IMG/VR virus record: IMGVR_UViG_3300020463_000016
Span: 4,038-68,037 of that record
Strand: one strand, 5' to 3'
From: a virus
Length of the DNA stretch: 64,000 nucleotides
Shown: piece after piece, positions 2,077-30,242 of the stretch
How the letters are laid out: each line of letters opens with the position of its first letter
How positions within the stretch are numbered: the first letter of the stretch is position 1
Made by a program: the position numbers and the translations under genes
Notes under the pieces: model-generated
Databases searched by the model: none
Told to the model about the DNA's origin: nothing
What the model saw: only the letters and a program-made list of their open reading frames with translations

Positions 2077-3111
2077 TTATGTAAACGTTATTGTGTACGT
2101 TCCGGCTGTTGTCCATTGTAGTATTTTGTCTGACCCGTCTGTTGTTAATGTTGGGCTTCCTGTAGCTGTATAGCTTCTAGCATTTGGAAATCTTAATATA
2201 ACGCAACCATCAGTACCAGCTGTATTACTTCTAGAAAATCCATAACTCGATTGGTTTTTATATGCATTTTCTGTACCTCCTCCGTGACCCCCACTTCCTG
2301 AAGTTGTAACAGCAGGTCGGGCTAAATATAAATTAGCGTAAACTCCATTACCGCCTACACCATACGCGACTGAAGAACCAGTTATTGAAGATGTTATACC
2401 AGAGCCTCCCGCAGTCATTGCTTGAGAACCCCCAATGCTTAGAATGGTATTTGTTGCTGCGCTTCCAGCTCCGCCGCCACCGCCAGATCTTTTGTAGTAT
2501 GAATTTTGAACGTTACCGTTAAAGCCATAAGTGCCTGAAACAAAAGCTGGGGCTATATAACCTTGGTAATTCCCCGGGTAATACGGTTGATTAACATTGC
2601 CTGCGTTCCCAGTATGACCTATTGAATATCCACCACCGCCGCCGCCGTTAGATGGAACAGAAGCCATAGTTTGCGATCCGTAATATGCAGTAGAATTACC
2701 GCCACCGCCTACAGCTACTAGACTGCCAACACTACTTTCGCCGCCTACACTAGTTCCATTATCACCAACAACTATAGCATAAGCTGTATTGGTTAGCATG
2801 GCAAGCTGAGTATCTAAAGATTGGCCTCCCCCATTAGCAACAGGAGATCCACCGGCAAATGAAGTTCTTACACCTCCGGCACCGCCGCCTGCCCAATTCC
2901 AGCTCTCATCGTATTGCTCACTAGTGTTATTATAATAATTGTAAGTGTTAGGGCTACCATCAGCACCACCTCCAGCTATAAGAAAATGTGAGTTAAAAGA
3001 TATATTATTTTGATATACCATTGAACTTCCTTTATAAACATTTTCAATCTCAGTTGTACCTTTGTAAAGTTTACTTCCGGCTATTTCCGTTGTTCCTTTG
3101 TATAATGGCAT
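2077..3111 (-). CDS. Glycine-rich tail fibre/spike protein
   Basis: LYKGTTEI x2 at N-terminus, GGGAGG tracts, C-terminal G.VILRF...T...F; resembles 62591..63430. Confidence 0.65.
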   Translation of the reverse strand: MPLYKGTTEIAGSKLYKGTTEIENVYKGSSMVYQNNISFNSHFLIAGGGADGSPNTYNYYNNTSEQYDESWNWAGGGAGGVRTSFAGGSPVANGGGQSLDTQLAMLTNTAYAIVVGDNGTSVGGESSVGSLVAVGGGGNSTAYYGSQTMASVPSNGGGGGGYSIGHTGNAGNVNQPYYPGNYQGYIAPAFVSGTYGFNGNVQNSYYKRSGGGGGAGSAATNTILSIGGSQAMTAGGSGITSSITGSSVAYGVGGNGVYANLYLARPAVTTSGSGGHGGGTENAYKNQSSYGFSRSNTAGTDGCVILRFPNARSYTATGSPTLTTDGSDKILQWTTAGTYTITFT

Positions 3112-3586: not shown

Positions 3587-5709
3587 TAGCTAATTCCGTT
3601 TATTACCCAACCATTGGTAGCGTCTGTATAAAACAGTTCAAAAGATGAAGTTTGTTCATCTAATACCAAAGAGGTAGTTCTCATTATTTTTTCTGACCCA
3701 TTAGGGTTTATTGTCCATACAAATGCCGATTGGCTATATAAACCATTGGCATCAAAAGCTGATAAGTTAGTAAACTTAATACTATCGCCTGCAACACCGG
3801 CTGGTAAAGTTAAAGTTCTATCCGCAGCTATATTACTTAATATATAATACTTCCACGCTACCGCTGTTGCGTTGGCTGTTAAAGCACCTCCATATTCATA
3901 TCCTTGTTTTAATACAACCGCACCGTTTAAACCAGCGGCTGATACTATAAGATTATTAAAATCTATAGAAGTTGCAGGTACATTGTTATTACCCCCAAAA
4001 TCATAGTTTGCTCCATTTGCAGAAGCAAGTACATTTAAAGGGTTATGAGATACTGCTTTACTTGATGGATCATAATATAAAAAATTTGCTTTTGGAGCTG
4101 TTGGTATATCATTTAGTTTAACAACCTCAGAATTAACATTAAATTCGCTAGTGTTAATAGTTAGCGCTCCACTCCCCTGCTTACCAAAGGTAAAACTATC
4201 GTTAACGTCGTTTGTAGTGACTACTTGATATATATTTACTGAAGTGTCATTTATTAACTGCCCTTGAGCTGGAAATGCTGTAGTGTAAGTTGATTCTACA
4301 AAATATAAAGATTGATTTGTAGGTATTACCCCAAACACCGTATTTATTGAAGCGAAGTTAGAAGTGCTTGTTACTACACTTGTAGCGCCGCTTGTTATTG
4401 AAACACCTGAAACAGACGCAGGAGAAGTTACTGCTTGAAATAAAGCGCCGTTGCTTTGTCTTACTCCATAAAACATTCTACCCATTGTTATATTTCCTGA
4501 AGGGCCTGCTAAAGCCTCTGAAAGTCCCGGAAGTATGGCTGCTACACCAGAGTTTAATTCTGGAAGTGTAAAGTAATTAGATGCAACCTGCAGTTTGGTG
4601 AGTGTGCCTTGATTGGTTAACCCTGATAAATCTGATGGGTTTCCTGCTACTGCAGCAATTTGTGCACCTGTTGGTACACCACTTGAGTTTTGCAAAGATA
4701 TACCAGAAGCAGATAATACAGCTCTTGTACCATCTGTTGCAATTGCTGTAACAGTATTTTGGCCCATAATTGTACGACCATCATTTGTTGTGGTATTAGA
4801 ATCTACCACTAAATCTTGAGTGAACCTAGTAGAGTTAGATATTATAGTAGAGCCGTTACCCGATATTAATAAGTCAGATCCGTCTGTTCCTAAAGCAACA
4901 TTAGGTGCAGTATCACCAAAAACAATACTAGACTCCGAATCTTTCATGTTTATGGCACCATGCACATTTAAATTCCTAGGATCATTATTAGGATTGTCTG
5001 TCCCAATTGTAACGTCTCCAGAATCAATTAATAAATCTCTTGTAATTTTTAAATCTCCAATTACTTGAGTTTCAATTTGTTGTGCCCCTGTTAAAAATGT
5101 AAAAGATGTAAAAGCAACTTGACCACCTGTATATGCTTCATTTAATGTTACATTAAAACAAAATTCTGTGTATTTATTGCTACCATTTGTAACGTATTTA
5201 CTATCGTTGGCTGCAGGTGATGTAGCAGTAAATGTAGGTGCATTAAAAGAAGTTACGGTGCCCGTGTAGGTAGCCCCACCCAGAACACCGGTAAAAGTTG
5301 CTGAATTTGTTGCAAAGTCAGCAAGATCATAATCAAGGGCGAACTGCCCGTCATTATAATCTCTTATGATTAAAAACACTTGACCTGTACCAAGTGTATT
5401 TAAATATATATCAGCTCCGGTATTTACCGTAGAGCTTTTTAGCACTACATTTGAAAGCGTTGACCCTGCAAGAGTTCTTACAAGTGATTTTTCAAATGCT
5501 GTACCTTCTCTGTTTACTGAAAGAAAGAAGCCTAAAGGTACTACATCAGGTATAGCGGCCGTTGTTTGGTCGCCCGTTATGTAGGCTTTTAGACTGTCTA
5601 TAGTATAATTTTTAGTTGCTAATGCGGAACTTGAGTTTGCATCAGTACCCAAAAGCTTATCACTACCTTCTACAGTAGAGTCTATGGTATATGTACTGAT
5701 CCTAGCCAT
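3586..5709 (-). CDS. Tail fibre protein
   Basis: 707 aa, Thr/Ser-rich; N-terminal MARISTY..D...SDKLLGTD; C-terminal TLTLPAG..GDSIKF...LFYTDATNGW domain. Confidence 0.65.
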   Translation of the reverse strand: MARISTYTIDSTVEGSDKLLGTDANSSSALATKNYTIDSLKAYITGDQTTAAIPDVVPLGFFLSVNREGTAFEKSLVRTLAGSTLSNVVLKSSTVNTGADIYLNTLGTGQVFLIIRDYNDGQFALDYDLADFATNSATFTGVLGGATYTGTVTSFNAPTFTATSPAANDSKYVTNGSNKYTEFCFNVTLNEAYTGGQVAFTSFTFLTGAQQIETQVIGDLKITRDLLIDSGDVTIGTDNPNNDPRNLNVHGAINMKDSESSIVFGDTAPNVALGTDGSDLLISGNGSTIISNSTRFTQDLVVDSNTTTNDGRTIMGQNTVTAIATDGTRAVLSASGISLQNSSGVPTGAQIAAVAGNPSDLSGLTNQGTLTKLQVASNYFTLPELNSGVAAILPGLSEALAGPSGNITMGRMFYGVRQSNGALFQAVTSPASVSGVSITSGATSVVTSTSNFASINTVFGVIPTNQSLYFVESTYTTAFPAQGQLINDTSVNIYQVVTTNDVNDSFTFGKQGSGALTINTSEFNVNSEVVKLNDIPTAPKANFLYYDPSSKAVSHNPLNVLASANGANYDFGGNNNVPATSIDFNNLIVSAAGLNGAVVLKQGYEYGGALTANATAVAWKYYILSNIAADRTLTLPAGVAGDSIKFTNLSAFDANGLYSQSAFVWTINPNGSEKIMRTTSLVLDEQTSSFELFYTDATNGWVINGIS

Positions 5710-11911: not shown

Positions 11912-12155
11912 CAATTACTACATTTTATCACATTATATACATATATCTCTTGGATTATACATATATATAACAATAATATATATTAATATTTTATAGTATT
12001 TACTTTACATTATTATATATTCAATGTTTATTAATGTTTATTAATAATATAATGACAATACTTTATATTACTTAAGTTATATTTATATATATATATAATA
12101 TAGTGCAATATTTATAATTTGTGACATTTTAATAATATTTATATATATTTAATAA

Positions 12156-12193
12156 AAAGTACACAACAATATATATATAAAAGTGATAATATA
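12156..12193 (+). promoter_or_regulatory. Bipartite phage motif, copy 1 (putative promoter)
   Basis: AAAGTACACAACAA-N13-GTGATAATATA upstream of 12236. Confidence 0.7.
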
Positions 12194-12235
12194 AGTGTAA
12201 TTAAAATAATAATAATCTTAATAAAAAAATATAAA

Positions 12236-12463
12236 ATGTCAAATTTAAAAAATTTAAAAACTAATCACTATATTTCTAAAATATTAAAAGTTAAAAAATT
12301 AAAATTTAAAAATAATATTTACTTTGGATTTTTAATAAATGACTTAAATAATATAAAATTAAAAGATAAATTAGAAATAGAAAATGTTATAGAATTTAAT
12401 TCAAAAGGTTTAACATTTATAAATAAAAAATATATACAAAATTCTACTTTAAATAATTTTTAA
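12236..12463 (+). CDS. Early hypothetical protein
   Basis: First + arm ORF, A-rich leader. Confidence 0.55.
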   Translation: MSNLKNLKTNHYISKILKVKKLKFKNNIYFGFLINDLNNIKLKDKLEIENVIEFNSKGLTFINKKYIQNSTLNNF

Positions 12464-12474
12464 AATAATATAAA

Positions 12475-12512
12475 AAAGTACACTACAAAGTTTATAAAAA
12501 AGTGATAATATA
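12475..12512 (+). promoter_or_regulatory. Bipartite phage motif, copy 2
   Basis: AAAGTACACTACAA-N13-GTGATAATATA. Confidence 0.7.
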
Positions 12513-12530
12513 AATGTAAATAAAATAAAT

Positions 12531-12695
12531 ATGAAATATATAACTTATAAAATTAATAATGATTTCTTTGAATTAGATTATAATAATTATAAAGAAGAAG
12601 AAAAAGAAATGTTAAAATATATTAAAAATAATAATATAAAAGATTTTAAAAAATTAGAAAATAATAAAGATTATAAATATAATATATTTAAATAA
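12531..12695 (+). CDS. Early hypothetical protein (54 aa); absent from the ORF track
   Basis: MKYITYKINNDFFELDY...; starts 18 nt after motif copy 2. Confidence 0.5.
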   Translation: MKYITYKINNDFFELDYNNYKEEEKEMLKYIKNNNIKDFKKLENNKDYKYNIFK

Positions 12696-12816
12696 AAAAT
12701 AATAATATAAAGTAGAGGATTTGAATAAACAATTTTCTGTAACTACTATAAAAACTGTTGAATTAAATTAAATTAATTTTAAAATAAATAAAATAAAAAT
12801 AAAATAAAATAAAAAA

Positions 12817-13717
12817 ATGATACAAAATAATTTTTCAGTACAAATTTACGACGGAGAAAGTGATAATAAATTAGATATATTATATATAAATAATATTATA
12901 AATTTAGATGATAATGACAATGATTTTACTAGAAAATTTGAAGAAGAATTATTAGATGAAGAATTAAAATTTGAAGGATATAATATAAGTGAAATATATT
13001 ATTCAATACTATAATAAATAAAAATAAAAAATATGAAAAGATTCCATTGGAATGTAGAAACTTTAGATTTTTTTCAACTATTAAAAAATAGTGAAGGAAA
13101 TGAAAAAATGAAACAAAGTGTAGAAATGTTTGTTTATAATGAATGTGATTTAGAAAATAATGAAAGTTATGAAGATTTAATTAAAGATTTATTATATCAA
13201 ATTGAAAATACAACTTTAGAAGAAATAGAAAATTTAAAAAAATAAAATATGAATAATGAAATGTTAAAAAGAATTTATGATGAATTAATAATTTTACATG
13301 ATTTCTATAATGATTTAAATGATAAAGATGGATTAAGAAATGTAAGTTTCTTATTAGATGAATTAAATAAAAATATAAAAGAATAAAAATATGACACAAG
13401 AACAAATTGATAGAAATGAATTAATAAAATTTATTTTAAAATATGATCCAGAAAGAGATTTAGAATTTTTAAAAATCCAATCTCATATGGAATTAGAAGA
13501 TATAAAAGAAACAACAAGAGATATGTATCTAAAAATTAAACCAAAAGTAAAAAGTGTTGATGACTTTGATTTAGATACTTATATTGATTTCAATAAAATA
13601 GTTGATGATTTTGAATTAGATAGTGGTGATTTATCTCCAGAAGATTTTTATAAATTACATGAAATCTTTGAAACATTTATAACAACAAATAAAAATGAAA
13701 ATCAATTTAGAAGATAA
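12817..13717 (+). other. Run of small acidic early ORFs (12817-13014, 13033-13245, 13391-13717 and a short ORF between)
   Basis: Co-oriented short ORFs with AAAAT-rich leaders; no recognisable domains. Confidence 0.55.
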
Positions 13718-13883
13718 TAAATAATATATAAAAAATAAATAATATGATTATAATAAATAAAATAACAGGTAGAGATGTTTCCAAAGAGTATTTAGGATTA
13801 ATGCAAGGAATAATAACAAATGAAGAATTTGAAACAATTACATTAACTCCGGGAAAAATTGGAAGTTGTGAATTATTTAATTA

Positions 13884-13921
13884 AAAGTACACAACAAAAA
13901 AAATTAATAAGTGATAATATA
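13884..13921 (+). promoter_or_regulatory. Bipartite phage motif, copy 3
   Basis: AAAGTACACAACAA-N13-GTGATAATATA, 11 nt before ATG 13933. Confidence 0.7.
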
Positions 13922-13932
13922 ATAAAATAAAT

Positions 13933-15031
13933 ATGGTACAATTAACAAAACAAATGATTGATGATAAATTAAAGCAAATTGCTATACATGAAAACCGATT
14001 TGGTGAATGTACAATGACTCGAGCAATGAAAAAATATTGCACAAATGAAAAGTACAGACAAAATGTAAAAGATTTTAACAAAGCAAGTATTGAAACTATT
14101 AAAAATTATATAAGATATGTATAGAGATGATTTAGTATATGAGTTTAACGATGATATGTGGAGTTTATATCATGATGGTACAATTAATGATAGCGATGAT
14201 TTCACAAGAGAAACGCATCAGTGGTTAGAAAATAAAGTAATATACAGAGATGATTGTAAAAAATATTGTAATGAATTAGATGCAGATATATTTGAAGATC
14301 ATCATATATTTGGTCGTGCAAATAACTGGTTTGAAGCAGGTTACAACGCTGTTTGGGATTTGTTACATGATCATGATGATGCATTAAATTATAACGAAAT
14401 GAAAGCACAAGAATATGAAGCTGAAAATGCATAAAGTTTGGAGATTATACTTATTAGATAATAAAAGTATAACTGAAATAAGTAAAGAATTAAATATAAC
14501 AAAAAATAAATTAAAATTAAAATACGGATTAAAATGAGAAAATTAGAAATGACTATTAGAATTGTTGCATTAACTTTTATATTGCCCAGTATATTTATTA
14601 TTATGTACCACGGTGTATATCTAAATAAATTTACATTATATAATGTAGGAGGTGCAATATGAATTTAAAAAGAATTAAAGAATTAAGAAATATTACGCAT
14701 GATGCACAAACTAAAATGGATCTTATTAGCAAAAGAATTATGCAAGGTGGTTTATCACTCGATCAACAAATACTACACCTTGATAATTTTACTGCAAATC
14801 AAACCAGACATATGCTTAGTAATGAAGAACTAATTAAATTATTAAAAAATGAATAAACAAGAAGCAATACAAAATTTAGCTGATGAAATTGCACCGGTTA
14901 TTAGTGAACAAATCCAAGAAACAATTGCATGGCAAACAGATGGCCATGAATATACTGAACATTTATCAGGCGATAGATATATAGAATTTGTAAATGAATT
15001 AAGAAATAAAATAATACAAGATTTATTATGA
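13933..15031 (+). other. Run of small early ORFs (13933-14124, 14117-14434, 14659-14856, 14849-15031)
   Basis: Overlapping start/stop pairs; hypothetical proteins. Confidence 0.55.
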
Positions 15032-15487: not shown

Positions 15488-15679
15488 ATGAAATATTGTA
15501 GATGTGGCGAAATAATGCCACAAGCAAGAATTGATCTTGGCTATAATAAATGTGTGCAATGCTCTGATACACAATTATATAGTTATGTACCAATCATTGC
15601 AAACAAACAAGTACTCGAAGTACAAATCGTTGATCAAGCTACAAGTGCGAATGTGCACAGAGCTTGGCGACGTAAATAG
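15488..15679 (+). CDS. C4 zinc-finger protein, DksA/TraR-like
   Basis: CRCGEIMPQARIDLGYNKCVQC resembles the DksA/TraR CxxCGExIPxxR...CxxC finger. Confidence 0.6.
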   Translation: MKYCRCGEIMPQARIDLGYNKCVQCSDTQLYSYVPIIANKQVLEVQIVDQATSANVHRAWRRK

Positions 15680-15758
15680 GGCGTGACGGGTAAGTGCAAA
15701 CAAAGTTCTAGAATTAGTACACTATTTGCAAACGGAGGTTCGACTCCTCCCACGTCCA
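15679..15758 (+). ncRNA. tRNA-like RNA resembling the tmRNA tRNA-like domain (Ala identity, no mRNA-like domain)
   Basis: Acceptor stem GGGCGUG/CACGUCC with G3:U70 and A73; T arm GGAGG-UUCGACU-CCUCC; no D stem; UGCAAA/UUUGCA helix. Confidence 0.7.
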
Positions 15759-15760
15759 CT

Positions 15761-15833
15761 AGCGCGGTAGAGCAGTGGCCAGCTCGCAGGGCTCATAACC
15801 CTGAGGTCGGAGGTTCGAATCCTTCCCGCGCAA
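15761..15833 (+). tRNA. tRNA-Met(CAU), initiator (fMet) type
   Basis: Cloverleaf; anticodon CAT at 15794-15796; GGG/CCC in anticodon stem; unpaired 1:72; CCA not encoded. Confidence 0.9.
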
Positions 15834-15846
15834 CTAAATTAAAATT

Positions 15847-28202: not shown

Positions 28203-28507
28203 CAAAATTTTTATGCTCAGGGTGTGGTGCTTGTTGTTTAACGGCAGGAGGAAAGTTTGGTCTGCCAGATAGAGGAGATGGCGTTTGCAATAATTATGAT
28301 GATAAAACTAATAAATGCAAAATATATGAGGACAGACCAGAGGTTTGTAAAATGGATAAATTTTATTTAAAAACCAAAAAATATATTCCTTTTATAAGTG
28401 AAAAATGGTTTTATAAATTGAATACGAGGGCTTGCCACGTATTAATAGACAGATATAATATAGATAAAAAATATAAAATACCTTTAAAAGATTACGATGT
28501 GGAATAA
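28199..28507 (+). CDS. YkgJ-family cysteine-cluster protein
   Basis: CSGCGACC...C...C.IYEDRPEVC. Confidence 0.8.
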   Translation: MTKFLCSGCGACCLTAGGKFGLPDRGDGVCNNYDDKTNKCKIYEDRPEVCKMDKFYLKTKKYIPFISEKWFYKLNTRACHVLIDRYNIDKKYKIPLKDYDVE

Positions 28508-30242
28508 CGAATGGAAGAAAGGCGAGGATTACCCTACTTGGGGTGACACTGACGTCTATAAAAAAACAATATCTGGTGGTTATTTAATAGCAGATGAGTC
28601 ACCTAAAGAAGCCTACTGGCGTGTTTCTAAAACAGTAGCAAGACGTTTATATAAGCCAGAACTAGCCGAAACTTTTTTTGAATATATATGGAAGGGTTGG
28701 TTGTGTTTAGCTTCTCCTGTGCTTTCTAATACAGGTACAGACCGAGGTTTGCCTATAAGTTGCTTTGGTATTGACGTAGCAGATAGCATACAAGATATTG
28801 GAAATAAAAATTTAGAAATGATGCTCTTAGCGAAACACGGCGGAGGAGTTGGGATAGGCATCAATCAAATAAGACCCGCTGGTAAAAGAATTACAGGTAA
28901 TGGAACTTCAGATGGCGTTGTCCCTTTTTGCAAAATTTACGACTCAACTATACTCGCAACCAACCAAGGTAGCGTTAGAAGAGGAGCTGCTTCAGTTAAT
29001 ATCAATATTGAACACGATGACTTCCTCGACTGGGTTGAAATTAGAGAACCCAAAGGAGATGTCAATAGACAATCTCTTAACTTGCACCAGTGTGCTGTCA
29101 TTGGTGATAAATTTATGCGAAGACTTGAAGCAGGAGATCAAGATGCTAGGCAAAGATGGTCAAAGCTTCTCCAAAAGCGCAAAGCAACTGGGGAACCATA
29201 TATCCTCTTTAAAGGTAATACAAACAAAACTAATCCAAACGCATATAAGAAAAACAGTTTAAAAGTACATATGACTAACATTTGTAGTGAAATAGTTTTA
29301 CACACAGATGAAAGTCATAGCTTTGTTTGCTGCTTATCTTCTGTTAACTTAGATAAATACGATGAATGGAAGAACACGAACTTGATTTACGACTCAACAT
29401 GGTTCTTAGACGGTGTGCTAGAAGAATTTATTCAAAGGGCAAAGAATATGAAGGGATTCGAGAACTCTGTACGCAGTGCGGAGAAGGGAAGAGCGGTTGG
29501 ACTTGGTGTCCTTGGGTGGCACAGCCTATTACAAAAAAACGGAATATCTTTCGAAAGCTTATTAGCTCAATTCAAAACGCGAGAAATATTTTCAAAAATA
29601 AAAATTGAAACTGAAAGAGCATCAAGAGCTTTAGCTGAAGTATACGGAGAACCTTTGTGGTGCGCAGGAACTGGTTTTAGAAATACACACTTAAGAGCAG
29701 TTGCCCCAACCGTATCTAATAGCAAATTAGCAGGTAGTGTATCGCCGGGCATTGAGCCTTGGGCCGCTAATGTATTTACAGAGCAGTCTGCTAAAGGTAC
29801 ATTTATACGTAAGAATAAAGAACTTAAAAAAGTATTAAGAAAAATTGGAATCGATAATAAAGAAACTTGGGATAAAATTTTGGAAGATGGTGGATCCGTT
29901 CAAGGGCTTAAACAACTTGATGGATGGGGTTACGATCACGGAGGAAGACTTAACCAAGAAGAGGGAGTAGAACCTGTAAAAAATGTTTTTAAAACATTTA
30001 AAGAAATTAATCAGCTAGAGTTAGTAAGGCAGGCGGGAATAAGACAAGACTATATAGATCAATCAGTAAGTCTTAATTTAGCTTTTCCCTCTGAAGCAAC
30101 GCCTAGATGGTTAAACACTGTACACTTTGAAGCGTGGAAGCGCGGAGTTAAAACATTATATTATGCTAGAACAGAAAGCGTCTTACGCGGTGACATTGCT
30201 GCTGCGGCTATGGATCCTGATTGCTTGTCTTGTGACGGTTAG
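28497..30242 (+). CDS. nrdA: Ribonucleotide reductase class I alpha subunit, no ATP cone
   Basis: ISCF, GGGVG, TNICSEI, VCCLSS, AVAPTVSNS, DQSVSLN, KTLYY, C-terminal CLSC. Confidence 0.95.
   Translation: MWNNEWKKGEDYPTWGDTDVYKKTISGGYLIADESPKEAYWRVSKTVARRLYKPELAETFFEYIWKGWLCLASPVLSNTGTDRGLPISCFGIDVADSIQDIGNKNLEMMLLAKHGGGVGIGINQIRPAGKRITGNGTSDGVVPFCKIYDSTILATNQGSVRRGAASVNINIEHDDFLDWVEIREPKGDVNRQSLNLHQCAVIGDKFMRRLEAGDQDARQRWSKLLQKRKATGEPYILFKGNTNKTNPNAYKKNSLKVHMTNICSEIVLHTDESHSFVCCLSSVNLDKYDEWKNTNLIYDSTWFLDGVLEEFIQRAKNMKGFENSVRSAEKGRAVGLGVLGWHSLLQKNGISFESLLAQFKTREIFSKIKIETERASRALAEVYGEPLWCAGTGFRNTHLRAVAPTVSNSKLAGSVSPGIEPWAANVFTEQSAKGTFIRKNKELKKVLRKIGIDNKETWDKILEDGGSVQGLKQLDGWGYDHGGRLNQEEGVEPVKNVFKTFKEINQLELVRQAGIRQDYIDQSVSLNLAFPSEATPRWLNTVHFEAWKRGVKTLYYARTESVLRGDIAAAAMDPDCLSCDG

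Follow-up and report, generated by a model that had tools for sequence, protein, structure and literature searches.

The 64,000-nt stretch of DNA analysed here, referred to as the window, covers positions 4,038 to 68,037 of the viral record IMGVR_UViG_3300020463_000016, a complete IMG/VR genome of 68,037 bp with terminal repeats that is present in marine and seawater metagenome runs. Between a small protein gene and a tRNA-Met gene, the window carries an 80-nt element that a preliminary description, made from the sequence alone, had read as a mini-tmRNA, i.e. a transfer-messenger RNA (tmRNA) consisting only of an alanine-specific tRNA-like domain (TLD). The analysis supports this reading: the element has the sequence and fold of such a domain, its helices covary across a family of phage relatives, and it resembles both bacterial tmRNA and the RNA of mycobacteriophage DS6A.

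Sequence and fold of the element

The 7-bp acceptor stem GGGCGUG/CACGUCC with its G3:U70 pair and discriminator A, the first feature claimed for the element, can be read base for base in the sequence. The minimum free energy fold agrees: without any constraint, the RNA of the window forms all described helices at -24.4 kcal/mol (z-score -2.40), an energy that was equalled by 2 of 200 shuffled sequences. The lack of a stem in the D region was confirmed in sequence and fold, where nine bases stay unpaired, and the 3-nt AAC linker followed by a perfect T arm was found as described. A helix UGCAAA/UUUGCA (P2) around 24 nt is likewise present. However, the preliminary description had overlooked that these 24 nt are structured themselves and form a 4 × 4 internal loop (CAAA/ACUA) and, beyond it, a stem of 6 bp that contains one U.U opposition and ends in a GAAU loop. 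As nothing but these 24 nt, folded as a hairpin, lies between the two strands of P2, there is no room for an mRNA-like domain. A tag reading frame in the arm was considered and rejected, since the UAG triplets of the window are not conserved in relatives. The positions of all features are compiled in Table 1.

Table 1. Features of the mini-tmRNA locus in window coordinates (RF00023 and RF00005, Rfam models of tmRNA and tRNA; R1, covariance model of the phage family)
Feature	Position	Strand	Basis
Gene of the mini-tmRNA (only the tRNA-like domain), 80 nt including discriminator A73	15679..15758	+	Sequence, fold, RF00023, R1
Acceptor 5' strand GGGCGUG; G3 (15681) opposite U70 (15755)	15679..15685	+	Sequence, family alignment
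Stemless D region ACGGGTAAG (DNA), ACGGGUAAG (RNA), 9 nt, unpaired	15686..15694	+	Sequence, fold
5' strand of the P2 helix, UGCAAA; corresponds to helix 2a of tmRNA	15695..15700	+	Covariation
Arm module: internal loop CAAA/ACUA, stem GUUCUA/UAGUAC (one U.U), loop GAAU	15701..15724	+	Fold, relatives
P2 helix 3' strand UUUGCA	15725..15730	+	Fold, covariation
Linker AAC	15731..15733	+	A in 99/101 and C in 92/101 family rows
T arm GGAGG-UUCGACU-CCUCC	15734..15750	+	Sequence, family alignment
Acceptor 3' strand CACGUCC and discriminator A73	15751..15758	+	Sequence
tRNA-Met(CAT) gene, separate from the mini-tmRNA	15761..15834	+	ARAGORN; RF00005 62.9 bits
Upstream gene, 63-aa CxC...CxxC protein; TAG stop 15677-15679	15488..15679	+	Open reading frame

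The GG of the stemless D region probably interacts with the T loop. Opposite the AA of the linker lies the final AG of this region, at the place of the tandem G.A/A.G in tmRNA, and the A-C of the linker ahead of the T stem matches the 'GGA-C' of the Rfam tmRNA consensus. CCA is not encoded in the window copy, in which A73 is followed by CU.

Phage relatives and covariation

Sister phages, which were located via the neighbouring ligase gene and by exact patterns, carry the same RNA with an identical acceptor and T arm. P2 occurs in these phages as UGCAAA/UUUGCA, UGUUGA/UCAACA, UGCUGA/UCAGCA and GCGAA/UUCGC, while the arm consists of the same module, shorter by 4 nt (2 bp) and with a GAAA loop. 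From nine sister sequences, RNAalifold independently predicted the acceptor, P2, P3 and T helices, with double changes in 6 of 21 pairs.

A pattern fixing the acceptor stem and T loop retrieved 117 stretches from IMG/VR, which correspond to 92 distinct sequences of 69-90 nt. ARAGORN called ten of them as tRNAs (four as Ala(UGC)); the remaining sequences share the architecture of the window element and have wholly different arms. When applied to bacterial genomes, the same pattern yielded at least 84 distinct sequences; among the matches listed, 78 were ARAGORN tRNAs and 77 of those were specific for alanine. The stem is therefore a normal tRNA-Ala stem, and the form without a D stem is characteristic of the viral set.

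These comparisons bear on the question of whether the element is functionless, either as a dead tRNA-Ala or as an attachment-site remnant of the 3' end of a host tRNA or tmRNA. Real tRNA-Ala genes have the identical acceptor GGGCGUG/CACGUCC (77 of 84 among the bacterial matches listed) and share the T arm and A73, and a few phage contigs contain a true tRNA-Ala(UGC) bearing the same stem, as expected if a tRNA had decayed. However, the window element has no D stem, anticodon stem or anticodon, only 10 of the 92 distinct viral sequences were called as tRNAs, and all helices are intact and covary in more than 100 copies. The presence of both acceptor strands and the complete 68-kb record with terminal repeats also speak against a relic. 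Decay, which had been named as an outcome that would count against a mini-tmRNA, is thus not borne out, as more than 100 IMG/VR relatives share the frame and both the inner arm and the T stem covary. We regard a functionless relic as hardly credible, and this explanation is rejected by the data.

A covariance model, R1, was built from 89 sequences, all of them from IMG/VR relatives and none from DS6A. With R1, 96 places were matched among 99 sources and 35 among 37 sources, and the window element scores 69.3 bits. The matches range in size from 44 to 123 nt, include a few copies with other acceptor stems, and occur twice on the contigs L093 and L060. In a 101-row alignment, which was fitted to R1 and hence leans towards the model, 93.4% of the cells are paired compared to 41-51% with the partners slid; a plain MAFFT alignment is 87.5% paired (61% in P2). 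Double changes were observed in 14 of the 18 pairs of the fitted alignment. All six pairs of P2 covary, as do four of the five pairs of the T stem, which is 99.8% paired. Based on the excess of pairing over the slid control and on the doubly changed pairs, we conclude that the structure is under selection. Since homologues keep every helix with compensatory changes, the element itself is also beyond chance.

Pair 3:70 is G.U in 99 of the 101 rows, an invariance that is partly built in, because 84 of the rows were gathered with the acceptor-fixing pattern. The retention of G3:U70 in homologues, on which the alanine-specific reading had been made to depend, is also seen beyond that pattern: the pair is kept in all 20 distinct sequences obtained with an acceptor-free pattern and in 15 of 17 model matches, which show compensatory changes at 1:72, 4:69, 5:68 and 6:67. 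As 3:70 stays G.U while these four pairs vary in a compensatory manner, alanine identity appears to be under selection. A small subgroup (L089 2376-2466, L128 105-198 and L116 12695-12788) has A1-U72 together with U73, and G3-C70 in two of its three members.

Outside the helices, A8 is found in 85 of the 101 rows and the two bases of the GG in 99 and 84, whereas the UUCGANU T loop is kept in 100-101 rows at each fixed position. A8, the GG at positions 12-13, the A-C before the T stem and the UUCGANU loop are the points on which the family agrees with the Rfam tmRNA consensus, GGGGguG-AucuGGaUUC-GACgggag...cuuucGGA-C-GcGGGUUCGAuUCCCgC. In the trailer after A73, C74 is encoded in 96 rows, CTA in 51 and CCA in just 7 of 101. 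CCA is also encoded in a copy of 54 nt (L056 49-102). A contig with a mini-tmRNA also contains a group I intron (L048 682-937, minus strand, 69.6 bits), and an abiF RNA match of 43 bits (cut-off 37) was observed beside tRNA genes on another (L031 1078-1114, minus strand).

The family is large and mostly unannotated, and it is distributed over many unrelated phage groups with G + C fractions from 0.39 to 0.72. Such a spread could point to a decoy, i.e. a mimic of tmRNA or tRNA that absorbs host defences or avoids triggering them, for instance proteins with SmpB-like domains or toxins that modify acceptor ends. CoCoNuT systems of types II and III-A have SmpB-like (SPB) domains, for which binding of tmRNA is predicted (PMC11090510). 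The argument nevertheless depends on a prediction about these defence systems, and we consider a role as bait very unlikely.

Comparison with known RNAs

The Rfam cut-offs relevant here are 47 bits for tmRNA (RF00023), 29 bits for tRNA (RF00005) and 65 bits for mitochondrial tmRNA (RF02544). The element does not score as an ordinary tRNA, the other outcome named beforehand as unfavourable to a mini-tmRNA. ARAGORN made no call at 15679-15758, and RF00005 reached 21.6 bits in a 251-base local scan, in which only the acceptor and T arm were aligned and the D and anticodon arms were skipped. In a search over the whole genome, RF00023 reached 33 bits (E 3.5e-13) at window positions 15679-15761, where model positions 1-374 were aligned and the interior was deleted. 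The suggested check against the tmRNA model returned an alignment from end to end, below the cut-off. At the gathering threshold, tRNA-Met was the sole Rfam match in the window, without any permuted or two-piece tmRNA family, and no tmRNA row was obtained for 13 relative loci, five of which contain the element. From 137 relative loci, 18 were sampled for comparison with RF00023. Full-length rows of 24.8-52.5 bits were obtained for nine of them, and three passed the cut-off (52.5, 50.4 and 50.3 bits). A total of 312 interior model positions are deleted in the alignments of relatives. The element is not a full tmRNA, because the mRNA-like domain with resume codon, tag frame with stop and pseudoknots is absent.

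Compared to the TLD of bacterial tmRNA (RF00023), the window element shows the same 7-bp acceptor length, G3:U70 and A73, an unpaired D region that contains A8 and GG, the A-C ahead of a 5-bp T stem, and the UUCGANU loop. A covarying helix is present at the place of helix 2a, with AG opposite AA instead of the tandem G.A/A.G. The element differs in having no pseudoknots, resume codon, tag frame, stop codon or encoded CCA. The third acceptor pair of tmRNA is always G-U and is the determinant for alanyl-tRNA synthetase (AlaRS), and the deformed D arm of tmRNA contacts SmpB (PMC3985003).

The TLD-only type has been published once, for mycobacteriophage DS6A, which is listed as 'TLD only' and whose RNA, not mentioned in the preliminary description, is the nearest precedent for the element. 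A molecule similar to the DS6A TLD is a strong inhibitor of tmRNA in E. coli regardless of whether it can be charged, and titration of SmpB may be the reason (PMC4131195 and PMC11915505, citing Mao et al. 2009). The DS6A RNA (JN698994 28478-28560) aligns over the full length of RF00023 with 43.2 bits, which is also below the cut-off, and R1 finds it at 28478-28557 (39.5 bits, E 3.5e-7). Both RNAs are phage-borne, measure about 80 nt and lack a tag frame; they have in common G3:U70, a D region that contains GG but no stem, a helix 2 that is capped, and a T arm. The acceptor is GGGGCCG/CGGCUCC in DS6A and GGGCGUG/CACGUCC in the window, and helix 2 of DS6A opens with a tmRNA-like 'GGUCGAC' compared to GGGUAAG-UGC in the window. 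The arms are unrelated, and the CAAAGUUC..GUACACUA module is missing from that of DS6A. DS6A infects a host of the phylum Actinobacteria, the window phage a marine host. It is well supported that the window RNA is of the same kind as the DS6A RNA, namely a tmRNA cut down to the TLD; it is a new member of this type with a notable arm module and an overlap with a stop codon.

A survey in which RefSeq viruses were searched gives, among 97,179 sequences, 79 phage tmRNA sequences and nine that are 'standard, no CDS' (no coding sequence), and relatives of the element may already be among them (PMC11915505). Marine phages have been reported with full two-piece tmRNAs, not with TLD-only forms (PMC9004378). 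A description of a broad phage family of TLD-only RNAs was not found in the literature searched. The cultured Microbacterium phage Gack carries an unannotated copy between tRNA-Asn and tRNA-Gln (PP978884 39854-39942; L270 339-427), which has the acceptor GGGCCUG/CAGGUCC with G3:U70 and scores 52 bits with R1. BLAST of the element of a relative against phages gave mostly T-arm matches to ordinary tRNAs, and Gack was the only convincing copy among five unannotated places. We regard as doubtful the copies in XacN1 (34 bits, acceptor mismatched) and in CEB_EC3a, a phage of E. coli (26 bits), and nt-1 and XC38 were rejected as the match is confined to the T arm.

Species 1 RNA of phage T4 (rnaC; AF158101, L275 1910-2001, minus strand), a stable RNA encoded in the tRNA cluster of T4, aligns weakly to R1 with its 3' 92 nt (20 bits, filters off, 501 bases). 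In this alignment, a 7-bp stem with G.U at its third position closes the RNA; GG lies in an unpaired region, and a long hairpin is followed by a GGGUUCGAAUCCC T arm. However, the annotated T4 RNA is 46 nt longer at the 5' side and is not found by RF00023. We therefore treat species 1 RNA as a lead and not as a match.

The preliminary description had also compared the element to the tag-less tmRNAs of jakobid mitochondria. The likeness stands, as the jakobid and oomycete RNAs (RF02544) are natural tmRNAs cut to about the TLD without a tag frame (PMC11915505). Membership does not, since RF02544 gave no match at E<=10 across the 68-kb genome with 28 candidates scored; in addition, the mitochondrial gene is usually circularly permuted and organellar, with SmpB encoded in the nucleus. 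Where mitochondrial tmRNAs without a coding sequence are conserved, SmpB is conserved too, and these RNAs presumably assist in dealing with incomplete mRNAs (PMC11915505).

A tag-free rescue has been proposed for these mitochondrial RNAs, and the phage RNA could act alike. When charged and bound to SmpB, it would enter stalled ribosomes and take over the nascent chain on its alanine; drop-off, peptidyl-tRNA hydrolase (Pth) or an ArfB-type factor would then free the ribosome, so that ribosomes would be recycled and phage proteins translated from broken mRNAs would carry no degron. The structural evidence is the same as for a competition with host tmRNA, and the strict retention of G3:U70, A73 and C74 suggests that charging matters, whereas the cited inhibition in E. 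coli needed no charging (PMC4131195). Against such a role, RF02544 gives no match, and genes for SmpB, for proteins with an RF-1/ArfB domain and for Pth were not found in this phage, so that the later steps would depend on the host. Tag-free rescue is in our view possible but rather unlikely.

Genomic context and proposed function

The upstream gene overlaps the RNA by one base, since its TAG stop codon ends on G1, the first base of the RNA. The same overlap was observed in the relative L002, and in L017 the stop codon lies one base further upstream. Cleavage by RNase P at G1 would leave the upstream mRNA as ...AAAUA, without a stop codon. Among 96 elements (loci not dereplicated), an upstream open reading frame on the same strand ends 0-10 nt before G1 in 34, and its stop codon shares its last base with G1 in four, including the window.

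Two genomic contexts recur. In 34-36 of 104 loci, including the window, a small CxC...CxxC protein, the element and small acidic proteins are encoded on one strand; Pfam gives no family for the CxC...CxxC protein or the neighbouring small acidic proteins, and an assignment of the 63-aa protein as TraR/DksA-like was dropped for this reason. The second context was found in 9-11 GC-rich contigs, in which a prohead protease gene (Peptidase_S78) lies 10 nt upstream and an HK97-type major capsid gene 29-93 nt downstream (L039, L041, L046, L059, L061, L074, L090, L091, L105 and L106). Due to its position between the prohead protease and capsid genes, the mini-tmRNA of the GC-rich contigs is located inside a late structural operon.

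The arm module is not confined to the arm of the window type. The 20-base module of the sister phages, CAAAGUUCGAAAGUACACUA, was also found immediately behind the same upstream gene, where it forms a plain hairpin, GUAGUUAA...UUAACUAC, in six contigs (L034, L060, L071, L111, L136 and L137), which carry a mini-tmRNA with a different arm further downstream. In five contigs (L130-L134), the module sits inside a hairpin with an acceptor-like stem but no T arm, and in L135 it belongs to a mini-tmRNA with the acceptor GGGCGAG/CUCGUCC. Its flanks CAAAGUUC..GUACACUA are constant, while the loop varies (GAAA, UAAA, AAAA, UUGG, AAGA). The window has a single occurrence of the module in a variant form with two added base pairs and the GAAU loop. 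A loose pattern, AAAGTTC N{2,12} GTACACTA, gave mostly chance matches in viral contigs; among the matches listed, 35 of 139 kept the closing helix. Constant flanks, a variable loop and the occurrence outside the mini-tmRNA frame indicate that the module is a unit of its own.

The operon position and the independent module could be explained by a frame that serves as a processing signal and scaffold: RNase P and 3'-end processing would cut a polycistronic mRNA at the element, and the arm would be the functional part that binds a protein or RNA. The elements indeed lie within same-strand operons, with the short or absent distance to the upstream gene and the placement between prohead protease and capsid genes described above, and the module recurs as a plain hairpin or in the T-arm-less form with constant flanks. 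To our knowledge, RNase P needs neither G3:U70 nor A73 nor a tmRNA-like D region, all of which are nevertheless conserved. The arms are also wholly different among members, and some copies are nearly armless (65, 54 and 44 nt), from which it follows that the frame is selected on its own. We consider a mere processing scaffold unlikely.

Competition with the host tmRNA is the function we propose for the element, by which the phage would encode a TLD-only ('tag-less') tmRNA, with SmpB and stalled ribosomes as the likely objects of the competition; we give this proposal an even chance of being correct. The steps from processing and charging to the binding of SmpB, as well as the effect on the host, are inferred from the conserved determinants and the cited E. 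coli experiment. The RNA would be transcribed together with tRNA-Met inside an early plus-strand operon, cleaved by RNase P at G1 and trimmed at the 3' side. Since only C74 is encoded, the CCA-adding enzyme of the host would be needed to complete the 3' end. Charging by AlaRS would rely on G3:U70 and A73; the SmpB of the host would be bound by the deformed D region and the elbow, and EF-Tu by the acceptor arm once it is charged. As no SmpB gene was found in the phage, any partner would be that of the host. A short arm closes tmRNA helix 2 in place of the pseudoknots and the tag-coding region, and trans-translation could not be completed because resume codon, tag and stop codon are missing. The most likely net effect would be a competition with host tmRNA for SmpB and stalled ribosomes, through which the proteins of the infected cell would escape the ssrA degradation tag.

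Several observations weigh against this proposal. The window copy stays at 33 bits with RF00023 compared to the cut-off of 47, the 251-base local cmscan kept tRNA as the row for the clan (with four lower clan matches hidden), no RF00023 row at E<=1 was obtained in 9 of the 18 relative loci, and the model finds nothing in Gack. The D region of the window is 1-3 nt shorter than in tmRNA, and A.A/G.A is found where tmRNA has the tandem G.A/A.G at helix 2a. The acceptor invariance is, as stated above, partly built in, and the other two of the 17 rows from beyond the acceptor-fixing pattern have G3-C70 with A1-U72 and U73. A 44-nt copy (L006 20-63) has A3-U70 and is armless. Inhibition was shown in E. 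coli with a similar molecule and not in a native host (PMC4131195 and PMC11915505, citing Mao et al. 2009). Finally, the arm module is conserved and recurs in settings other than the tRNA-like frame, which would be superfluous for an RNA that serves simply as an SmpB sponge. The mini-tmRNA might instead be a modular adaptor, in which the TLD frame docks on SmpB, EF-Tu and stalled ribosomes and a swappable arm brings a second partner; by cutting within the UAG stop codon, RNase P could even make the substrate of this RNA. We regard such an adaptor as quite unlikely.

The tRNA-Met(CAT) gene starts 2 nt past the element on the same strand, and both RNAs are probably part of one precursor. The tRNA has a 1:72 mismatch (A/A), an anticodon stem closed by GGG/CCC, and A11:U24. 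We take the mismatch, the three G-C pairs and A11:U24 to be marks of a bacterial initiator tRNA, and an initiator tRNA may thus be encoded beside the mini-tmRNA in this phage. In more distant relatives, the same place is occupied by tRNA-Met together with tRNA-Gly(UCC) instead. Across the family, a tRNA gene lies within 300 nt of only 15 of 105 elements, always on the same strand.

In some relatives (L274 3597-3676, minus strand; L004 ~2925-3003; L013; L017), the mini-tmRNA is closely preceded by a conserved structured block of about 70-80 nt, CACCGGAGG...CUGACGAGC...ACUAGUUA...GCGCCUCCGG. Its outer helix covaries (GGAGG/CCUCC versus GAAGG/CCUUC), its fold has a z-score of -3.5, and it replaces the 63-aa gene in L274. 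No Rfam family was assigned to the block at the gathering threshold in L004, L013 and L017. L274 (NZHE01000017.1) is an 11.8-kb contig of a related phage that shares the ligase, the sigma-like gene and the mini-tmRNA with the window, and was binned in a 'Rickettsiales bacterium' metagenome-assembled genome; this placement either results from faulty binning or hints weakly at a marine alphaproteobacterial host. BLAST of the window locus against 50,697 phage records returned only tRNA-Met-like pieces and no close relative, and the best identity in a protein search with the ligase was 36%. Neither a close cultured relative nor a host emerged from these searches.

The start of the plus-strand operon (window 12001-14000) is a 2-kb region with 15% G + C and many very small open reading frames. 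A scan of the locus for promoter-like sites (69 versus 55 ± 7.7 expected) and terminators (0) was uninformative, as the DNA is AT-rich. Contigs from three RNA libraries of three studies (X15, X18 and X20) span the element in relatives with 90-99% similarity, and none lies over it in X16; as such contigs prove neither transcription nor ends, they were not used as evidence.

The gene is absent from phage annotation, as in the gap between tRNA-Asn and tRNA-Gln of Gack, because ARAGORN and the Rfam gathering thresholds miss it. As natural minimal TLDs with diverse arms, the family members could serve in studies of SmpB recognition and as natural counterparts of engineered tRNA scaffolds. If the RNA binds SmpB or enters stalled ribosomes, a wide range of phages would possess a one-gene tool of about 80 bases that alters ribosome rescue and ssrA tagging, an alteration by phages that has been tested once so far, in E. 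coli with a DS6A-like construct. Taken together, this phage family probably interferes with the way in which the host handles stalled ribosomes.

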